Of a DNA stretch of 64,000 bases, positions 1,932 through 3,096 are shown one piece after another. The DNA is taken from assembly GCA_027623195.1 (NCBI GenBank), contig JAQBUT010000012.1:1-64000 (forward strand), written 5' to 3'. Within the stretch, counting starts at the first letter, position 1, and each line of letters opens with the position of its first letter. Source of the DNA: Chloroflexota bacterium (GTDB taxonomy: Bacteria > Chloroflexota > Dehalococcoidia > Lucifugimonadales > JADFKI01). Below the pieces are notes generated by a model. It ran no database searches. It saw only the letters and a program-made list of their open reading frames with translations, and had not been told where the DNA came from. Position numbers and translations under genes: made by a program.

Positions 1932-1960
1932 TTTAAGTCGTCATTTTGTTGTGCTATACT
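1932..1960 (+). promoter_or_regulatory. Putative sigma70 promoter with extended -10
   Basis: TTTAAG-17 bp-TATACT, with TG one base before the -10 hexamer (TGcTATACT). Confidence 0.45.
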
Positions 1961-1964
1961 CTCC

Positions 1965-2085
1965 GCAGAGGGTGTTCGCACCCCCTACAGGTCCCACCAG
2001 TCAATGTGTCTCTTCCGGGTCAAGAACTGCCGCTTGGGCTGGTGGGCCTATTTAACCCTCCCCCCAGCCGTCCTCTATTTTTTGC
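1965..2085 (+). ncRNA. Candidate structured small RNA (unassigned)
   Basis: Starts just after the promoter; GGGTG-TTCG-CACCC tetraloop hairpin, then a long stem CCCACCAGTC/GGCTGGTGGG, then a T-rich end. Confidence 0.4.
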
Positions 2086-2231
2086 TTTCTTATTTGTTTA
2101 GGCTATCGCTAACTTTCTAGTGCCCACTTTCTCCCAGTAGAGGCTCTTTGTCGCCCGCGTATAAGGGATTTTTGCGTGCGTAATTTTATGCCTCGTTGGG
2201 TAAAAAGGAAGAGGTGTGAGGAGGCCTTTGG

Positions 2232-2288
2232 ATGGCTAAAGAAAGAGGACCTGGAGAATTGGGTCCCAATAAAAAGATGAGCAGGTAA
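2232..2288 (+). CDS. Putative 18-aa peptide MAKERGPGELGPNKKMSR
   Basis: AGGAGG Shine-Dalgarno at 2219-2224 ahead of the ATG; the stop codon lies inside the 5' arm of the following hairpin. Confidence 0.25.
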   Translation: MAKERGPGELGPNKKMSR

Positions 2289-2319
2289 AATGACGGCGGA
2301 CCGCCGTTACCTGCTCATC
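2268..2319 (-). terminator. Long hairpin, probable minus-strand intrinsic terminator
   Basis: GATGAGCAGGTAA/TTACCTGCTCATC 13-bp inverted repeat with an inner ACGGCG/CGCCGT stem; followed by TTTTTATT on the minus strand. Confidence 0.6.
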
Positions 2320-2466
2320 GCCTCTTCCGGGTCAAGAAAAAGGCTTCCGGGACTGGTGTACGCGACCTTACCGGTCGGTCTGGTAAGGATAACACACGCC
2401 ATTAGACTTTTCTAGTTTTAATTTAATATTTCATTCAATTGAAGTATGTTTCGTTGAATTTGCCAT

Positions 2467-3096
2467 TCAGGCGATGTCTCCGAAAGATTTCGGAACAATA
2501 TCGTCGTGAAATGACAACTGGTCGGCAACGTCTTCGTGTCCTCTATCCGGAGGCAATTCCATTCCCATGCCGTCCGCCACTCTCACCAGGTAATTGAACA
2601 TGCCGGTGATATGCACTATGTCGACGATATCTTCGTCGCTCCAGCCGAATTCCCGCAGGTTGTCCACATGGCTTTGAGATGTGCTGGAAGGCGTAAAAGT
2701 TAGAAACTCCGCGAACTCAAGCATGGCAATCTGCTTCTCTGTCAGCCTAGCCTCTCGGTAGTTCTCACCAAACTGCTGCGCCAGTTGGGAATCGGGGTCC
2801 TGTTCGTGCAGAGCCTCTGCATGGGCGGTTGTTCAATACTGGCACTTGTTTAGGGCCGACACTACGGTGGCGATCATCTCTTTCTCGGCACTGGTCAGGC
2901 CTGATTTGCTCCTCATGACCGTGCGTAGGTGGGTCGCAAATGTTTCCATAATTTCCGGGCGAATCCCGTTTACGGCAAGCACGTTAGGCAGCTTTAAGTG
3001 GTGCCGGAGAATGGCGTCGTAGCCCAGCTTTATGTCTTCAGGCGCCTCGTCGTATTTGACGGTTCGTACGAATGCCAAATTCCCTACCTCGGCCAT
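2467..3096 (-). CDS. AhpD/carboxymuconolactone decarboxylase-family peroxidase-related selenoprotein (CxxU)
   Basis: ORFs 2833-3096 and 2467-2724 are in the same frame, separated only by one TGA (2833-2835) and 36 sense codons. Readthrough gives VSALNKCQY-U-TTAHAEAL, the AhpD CxxC...H motif with Sec replacing the second Cys. Confidence 0.85.
2807..2835 (-). promoter_or_regulatory. Bacterial SECIS element immediately 3' of the Sec codon
   Basis: UGA-11 nt-UGCAGA-GGC-UCUGCA: a stem with a G-initiated loop 17 nt after UGA, resembling the E. coli fdhF SECIS apical stem (UGCAGGUCUGCA). Confidence 0.7.

Follow-up and report, generated by a model that had tools for sequence, protein, structure and literature searches.

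What occupies the gap between a conserved minus-strand gene group and a selenoprotein gene in this Chloroflexota bacterium, where one 17-base sequence stands twice at the apex of a hairpin? The window (the whole stretch of DNA analysed, 64,000 nucleotides) belongs to the genome referred to here as G000 and was compared mainly with G002, a genome of the same genus. The gap likely holds two conserved genes for predicted hairpin RNAs, RNA1 (element E1) and RNA2 (element E2), facing each other and sharing the 17-base repeat. The features are given by position, strand and description:

862-1506, minus: conserved left neighbours, comprising a short Zn-ribbon gene (1270-1506) and a degenerate receiver domain (862-1242)
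1932-1960, plus: candidate promoter of RNA1, with a weak -35 region and the extended -10 TGCTATACT at 1952-1960
1966-2053, plus: E1/RNA1, about 90 nt, with a UUCG hairpin (1970-1983) and a long stem (1989-2002/2037-2049)
2004-2120, plus: possible 38-codon hydrophobic frame, conserved at its start only
2010-2026, plus: repeat copy 1, with the predicted apical loop CGGGUCAA at 2016-2023
2034-2044, plus: second, imperfect repeat block in E1, partner of 2347-2358 in E2
2051-2275, no strand assigned: variable spacer, C-rich and G-poor at first, G-rich later
2276-2319, minus: terminator-like 3' hairpin of predicted RNA2, with a 13-bp stem (2276-2288/2307-2319)
2320-2344, minus: recognition hairpin of predicted RNA2 (GCCT...AGGC, 9-bp stem with two G.U pairs), containing repeat copy 2 (2322-2338)
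2347-2358, minus: second repeat block in E2, partner of 2034-2044
2354-2401, minus: 5' hairpin domain of predicted RNA2, core CCTTACC (2366-2372)/GGTAAGG (2382-2388)
2401-2438, minus: AT-rich conserved block, candidate RNA2 promoter (TTGAAT-18-TAGAAA)
2467-3096, minus: AhpD-like selenoprotein gene (peroxidase-related), a neighbour outside the unit, with an in-frame UGA (2833-2835) at the CxxU position

All of the features named in an earlier note on this DNA were found where it had placed them. The two copies of the 17-mer lie 312 nt apart; in the window, two matches with at most 3 mismatches were found (0.11 expected), and none of 100 shuffles reached two. The 3.0-Mb genome contains only these 2 copies at 0, 1 and 2 mismatches and 12 copies at 3 mismatches. 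Exact repeats of at least 17 bases within 500 nt are present at 23 loci of the genome, being uncommon but not unique. E2 folded with a z-score of -5.7 on both strands (0/200 shuffles) and the long stem of E1 with -2.9 (3/200 shuffles), while 1965-2090 as a whole reached only -1.0 (32/200 shuffles). The UUCG hairpin was confirmed, although its closing pair is G-C and not the usual C-G.

The earlier note recognised no RNA family, and Rfam agreed. Like the families considered (6S, SRP, RNase P, tmRNA and Chloroflexi motifs), the elements would be structured RNAs with their own predicted promoters; unlike those families, the window has no match to them at the gathering score. Searches of the region and its G002 homologue gave chance-level matches only, none at useful E-values, and the SRP RNA, RNase P RNA and tmRNA genes are situated elsewhere in the genome. 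6S RNA is a rod of about 180 nt with a central bubble and a wide distribution; E1 is about 90 nt long, was found in 2 of 150 genomes and has no RF00013 match, and this identity was rejected. RF00013 was found in 0 of 40 genomes of the order (5 of 14 controls were positive), 6S RNA being either absent from these or too divergent. An origin of replication was also rejected, as there are no DnaA-type boxes nearby (3 in the window vs. 3.0 expected).

E1 and E2 are conserved far above neutral sites, and the spacer drifts. Between this genome and G002, 80/83 positions are identical in E1, 101/125 in E2 and 111/227 in the spacer; four-fold sites are identical at 50/107 positions and the flanking genes at 70-81%. 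Whole folds are kept, with compensatory changes in the E2 helices. The earlier note extended E1 to 2085, but conservation stops near 2053. It also pointed to a third occurrence of CTTCCGGG (2344-2351), which is present but not conserved.

By DNA search, 2 of 61 genomes carry the locus, namely G000 itself and G002. With RNA models, E1 was matched in 2 of 150 genomes and E2 in 3 of 150; one of the E2 matches was weak and partial and was rejected, as was an R2 match in G092. A class-wide DNA search of 401 genomes gave 16 short weak matches, rejected on context. The 110-aa gene that flanks the locus is present in the same 2 genomes out of 401; the other genome of the genus (86% complete) lacks both the locus and this gene. 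A third homologue, P0038, is a gene-caller frame from a Logan contig that reads through E1 and E2. It is known as a translated frame only, and its inferred bases are the codon positions fixed by the residue. It matches the E1 frame of either genome at 25/26 residues and the E2 frames of the two genomes at 18/21 and 19/21; both repeats are compatible and stand at a distance of 311 nt, with an unrelated spacer. A contig from run X7 carries E1 alone, matching 1949-2053 with 4 differences before a different C-rich tail. E2 is thus represented by two DNA sequences only. Pattern scans of metagenomes (at least 120 matches), GTDB contigs (at least 119) and viral contigs (40) gave chance matches only; among the matches listed, none of 160 and 119 had a context resembling E1 or E2, and the best chance match listed (L111) was rejected because it sits in an apparent coding frame. 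Further searches (another viral pattern, the flanking protein against viral sequences, BLAST against phages and plasmids) were unproductive. Judged from these comparisons, the two-element RNA locus is real, conserved, uncatalogued and narrow in range.

The first 40 nt of the spacer contain C16/G3 and C18/G3 in the two genomes. The spacer is C-rich after E1 and G-rich farther on, which fits transcripts that enter from either side and end there. The G000/G002 comparison showed no conserved promoter in the spacer. One block (2153-2184) is weakly kept (local alignment p=0.004) and can pair with the RNA1 5' hairpin (-18.2 kcal/mol in G002, -11.7 here).

The left side of the locus (Zn-ribbon, receiver and 110-aa genes) is syntenic in G002. 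Of 401 genomes of the order, 184 have the Zn-ribbon family, in many cases directly before the same 290-aa gene; the gene at 1270-1506 is a short second copy for this protein, which has no Pfam match and is also encoded at G000 C40:51559-52035. The minus-strand promoter at 1613-1681 is conserved (TTGTAA-17-TAAAAT; a GGATT-N3-AATCC palindrome covers the -35). A 22-nt AT-rich motif upstream of this promoter recurs at 2402-2423, and the two places possibly share a regulator site. The 110-aa protein (502-834) belongs to no known family and has an invariant MxxxDPNRWVWWY start and a CPxC motif; its relatives, named Chloroflexota, form 11 clusters down to 52% identity, and an Atlas search with it gave nothing above 0.81. 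The region before its gene (250-500) can be aligned clearly with G002; no conserved frame was seen in it, and it is possibly another structured leader or RNA. Positions 1-81 are the end of a multi-copy repeat, probably an insertion sequence, that matches about 20 contig ends; it breaks up a 159-aa frame which G002 has intact.

A conserved extended -10 and the better fold on the plus strand support E1 as a plus-strand RNA. The motif TGCTATACT is identical in G002, has compatible residues in P0038 and fits the TGnTAnnnT pattern that precedes tRNA genes of this genome; the 9-mer has 11 copies genome-wide. The promoter was missed by the promoter scan because its -35 is weak. The start of RNA1 was predicted near 1966-1968. 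The stem energy of E1 was -28.3 kcal/mol on the plus strand vs. -23.2 on the minus strand (a further pair of values, -29.1 vs. -21.9). The apical loop of the predicted RNA1 presents GGGUCAA, with an unpaired probability of 0.9-1.0 in G000 and 0.8-0.9 in G002. The second repeat block is by itself not significant (p 0.08 and 0.13), and E2 as a circular permutation of E1 was rejected (p 0.05-0.3).

E2 is likely a minus-strand RNA, running from about 2401 to 2270. It forms three stem-loops, in which two pairs change on both sides between G000 and G002; such changes support folding, not strand, and covariation in the two sequences was not significant (106/500 shuffles). The minus strand was preferred because of wobble positions that read G.U on minus and A.C on plus. 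These are 2324/2340 and 2327/2337 in G000 and G002 (compatible in P0038) and 2277/2318 of the 3' hairpin in G002 and P0038. At 2370/2384 of the 5' hairpin, G000 has A-U, G002 has G-C and the inferred P0038 bases give G.U on minus and A.C on plus. The helix-end positions 2373/2381 (G000 and G002) and 2287/2308 (G002) favour plus. The recognition hairpin is invariant in G002, has compatible residues in P0038 and is more stable on minus (-9.8 kcal/mol vs. -3.9 on plus); its loop UUGACCC (2335-2329) opens with the YUNR motif UUGA. The minus-strand terminator read in the earlier note was only partly borne out: the 13-bp stem is present, and on minus one change in it is compensatory and another turns A-U into G.U, but a clear U-tract follows it on minus in G000 only, and there is none on plus. 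The AT-rich block right of E2 is 27/32 identical in G002, where the box reads TTGATT-18-TAGAAA. Transcription from this candidate RNA2 promoter would begin at the conserved fold's edge, although the -10 is non-canonical, the last T being missing; the block resembles 1660-1681, upstream of a minus-strand operon.

The predicted loops of RNA1 and RNA2 are exactly complementary over 7 nt, and both are predicted to be unpaired. The predicted RNA1:RNA2 duplex has 20 contiguous pairs plus the second block, bearing in mind that opposite readings of any repeat would do the same. Pairing beyond the 17-mer exceeded that of shuffled flanks (p=0.046 and 0.025). In the second block, G000 and G002 differ in both RNAs and each version pairs. 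The four distinct differences between the E1 and E2 copies in the paired blocks are all T in E1 and C in E2, and would thus give G.U in a duplex of plus-strand RNA1 with minus-strand RNA2, a pattern of about 1 in 16 by chance; this is modest evidence for that orientation. The duplex energies did not discriminate orientation (-58.0 vs. -52.8; -59.0 vs. -58.1), and whole-molecule pairing gains were larger in the opposite one. No covarying change is present inside the 17-mer, whose central 7 bases are invariant.

The convergent sense/antisense arrangement suggested by the earlier note is the best supported reading (by conservation, strand-diagnostic wobbles and complementary loops), though unproven. 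We consider the case evenly balanced for two convergent RNAs, one antisense to the other, that follow the repeat plan of par(pAD1) yet lack a conserved toxin. Both elements might instead be transcribed from the plus strand, either as a pair of paralogous RNAs or as one RNA of 410-450 nt with a variable middle, the repeated apex being a protein or mRNA target site used twice. Overall folding of E2 is indeed close on the two strands (z -5.65 on plus vs. -5.66 on minus; consensus -40.4 vs. -43.9), three one-sided changes keep plus pairs in its consensus fold besides one at the terminator stem, and the same loop, closed by UUC/GAA, can form at the apex of E1 and of E2 alike. On plus, E2 is followed by a U-rich run (2407-2419), and the U-tract of RNA1 itself is short. 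However, four internal A.C mismatches on plus become G.U on minus, E2 would have no conserved spacer promoter, the C-rich tail after E1 in three sequences resembles a termination zone, and the conserved block 2401-2432 is longer than a U-tract requires. A plus-strand E2 was judged unlikely for these reasons, minus being about three times as likely as plus. The 17-mers might also act as DNA, as a looping operator pair or recombination cores, with the hairpins as incidental terminators. The quasi-palindrome TCTT-N7-AAGA, the position of copy 1 about 45 nt downstream of the promoter and the repeat spacings (312, 311 and 279), which differ by about three helical turns, would suit such sites. The repeated operator, one of the earlier note's alternatives, is nevertheless weak: several upstream copies genome-wide would be expected of a transcription-factor operator and there is no further copy at up to 2 mismatches, TCTT-N7-AAGA counts track codon periodicity (49 of 59 matches in called frames, 10 intergenic), and conservation spans whole folds with compensatory changes as well as the invariant repeat centre. 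No joint skipping the spacer was found in the DNA contigs of 4 runs. We regard DNA sites as improbable.

The earlier note further suggested that E2 could belong to the selenoprotein mRNA as its 3' UTR. The selenoprotein gene ends 65 nt upstream of E2 on the same strand with no terminator listed in between, so read-through is possible in this genome. Yet the gene is absent at this place in G002, which keeps E2 next to an unrelated plus-strand gene; as both the right-hand gene and the spacer differ there, E2 is not simply the selenoprotein's 3' UTR, and the suggestion fails generally. A cis element of this mRNA, including a SECIS-like one (rejected on the same missing linkage), is refuted as what keeps E2 conserved and is otherwise scarcely credible. 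More serious is the reading of RNA1 as a short-peptide message running from 2004 to the shared hairpin 2276-2319, with RNA2 as an antisense repressor of the par/Fst type I kind. Its layout matches par(pAD1) as far as that system is described in the available part of PMC7472228, the start codon adjoins the repeat, codons 1-16 differ from those of G002 by synonymous changes only (three of three, p about 0.025), and a hydrophobic stretch of 19 residues (mean 1.41) occurs in the G000 peptide. Against this, neither length nor C-terminus is kept (38 aa in G000 vs. 58 aa in G002, hydrophobicity 0.77 in the latter), codon 16 is not Tyr in P0038, and the X7 tail is unrelated beyond 2053. The ribosome site is weak (AGGU, 11 nt upstream, paired), the three synonymous changes also sit at unpaired or terminal fold positions, and the peptide has no Pfam family and no homologue was found; its sole match, P0039, is a singleton built of repeats and was put down to chance. 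We consider the peptide message rather unlikely. The pairing step is common to this reading and to the toxin-free antisense pair, and the antisense-pair model taken to include the peptide variant is probable.

In the antisense-pair model, RNA2 (minus, about 2401 to 2270) would bind RNA1 (plus, about 1966 to 2053) by way of the repeat that they share and would inactivate it. First contact would be a kiss between the UUGACCC U-turn loop of RNA2 and the GGGUCAA loop of RNA1; the YUNR motif speeds first contact in several antisense systems, according to the available part of PMC6562991. Pairing could then grow to 20 bp (2007-2026) and on to the second block (2034-2044), opening the long stem of RNA1, and the duplex would be sequestered or cut by RNase III, without Hfq. 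The genome encodes RNase III and Rho, and Hfq was not found in it (87% complete). RNA1 would be the effector, most likely a non-coding regulator that works through its apex, and the level of free RNA1 would depend on the balance between the two promoters. An RNA1 target did not stand out among 2603-2606 called start regions, in which the Zn-ribbon ribosome site ranked 1005 of 2603. No conserved long complement of RNA1 was found elsewhere in the island or genome, a 16-nt complement match being rejected because it lies inside a coding gene, and pairing with SRP RNA, tmRNA or RNase P RNA gave broken duplexes only.

The par(pAD1) locus is the closest parallel in layout. Its convergent RNAs are complementary through direct repeats read oppositely, as set out in the available parts of PMC7472228 and PMC4147584. 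Like par(pAD1) (RNA I/Fst and RNA II) and the par-like loci described there, this locus would have two RNAs from predicted convergent promoters, of which the plus one is conserved and the minus candidate is conserved but non-canonical. Direct repeats likewise give the complementarity (17 nt exact, 20 bp with wobble, and an 11-nt imperfect block), with a U-turn loop for first contact and two repeat blocks. Unlike par(pAD1) as described in those parts, it has no conserved toxin frame, no conserved Fst/Ldr-type hydrophobic peptide and no Fst/Ldr match; its conserved units are 190-225 nt apart, the shared terminator is only putative, the predicted first contact is between repeat loops instead of terminator loops, and the host is a Chloroflexota bacterium instead of Enterococcus.

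The available part of PMC4147584 lists tisB/IstR-1, shoB/OhsC, zor/Orz, as well as dinQ/AgrB, as non-overlapping type I pairs, in which Hfq is not needed and RNase III acts on the tisB duplex. The present locus resembles them in its neighbouring, non-overlapping genes and in a near-perfect complementarity that spans about 20 nt (IstR-1 has 21 nt). Those pairs are divergent, as far as that account goes, and target a long toxin 5' UTR, whereas the genes here are predicted to be convergent and have no conserved toxin. RosA of Bacillus subtilis is a sponge of the sRNAs RoxS and FsrA (PMC8216469, available part). As with RosA, one small RNA is predicted here to titrate another and alter its level or processing, and by analogy the likely outcome resembles an sRNA sponge. 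Unlike RosA in that description, the partner adjoins its target and bears an exact 17-nt copy of the target's apex, and no mRNA regulon is known for RNA1. The Dehalococcoides rdhA motif, situated upstream of dehalogenase genes according to the available part of PMC11109978, has a different context.

Pairing of this kind has precedents in par(pAD1) and in sRNA sponges; the sequences are new, and no prior report of SAR202 small RNAs or of this layout was found in the open-access literature. We tentatively propose, as a possible though not the favoured outcome, a protein-free two-RNA switch, in which a small RNA is controlled by a dedicated neighbouring anti-RNA carrying an exact copy of its apex. 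This would be a toxin-free par plan controlling a regulator, in a SAR202-type lineage for which neither Hfq nor 6S RNA was found. The weight of the finding is limited by its narrow range, one genus in the genomes searched. The antisense-pair model is easy to test, culturing not being required: a pair of short transcripts made in vitro and an exchange of loops would do. If true, the par plan would be used here with no conserved toxin, and the locus would be a first testable RNA-RNA regulator in this lineage.
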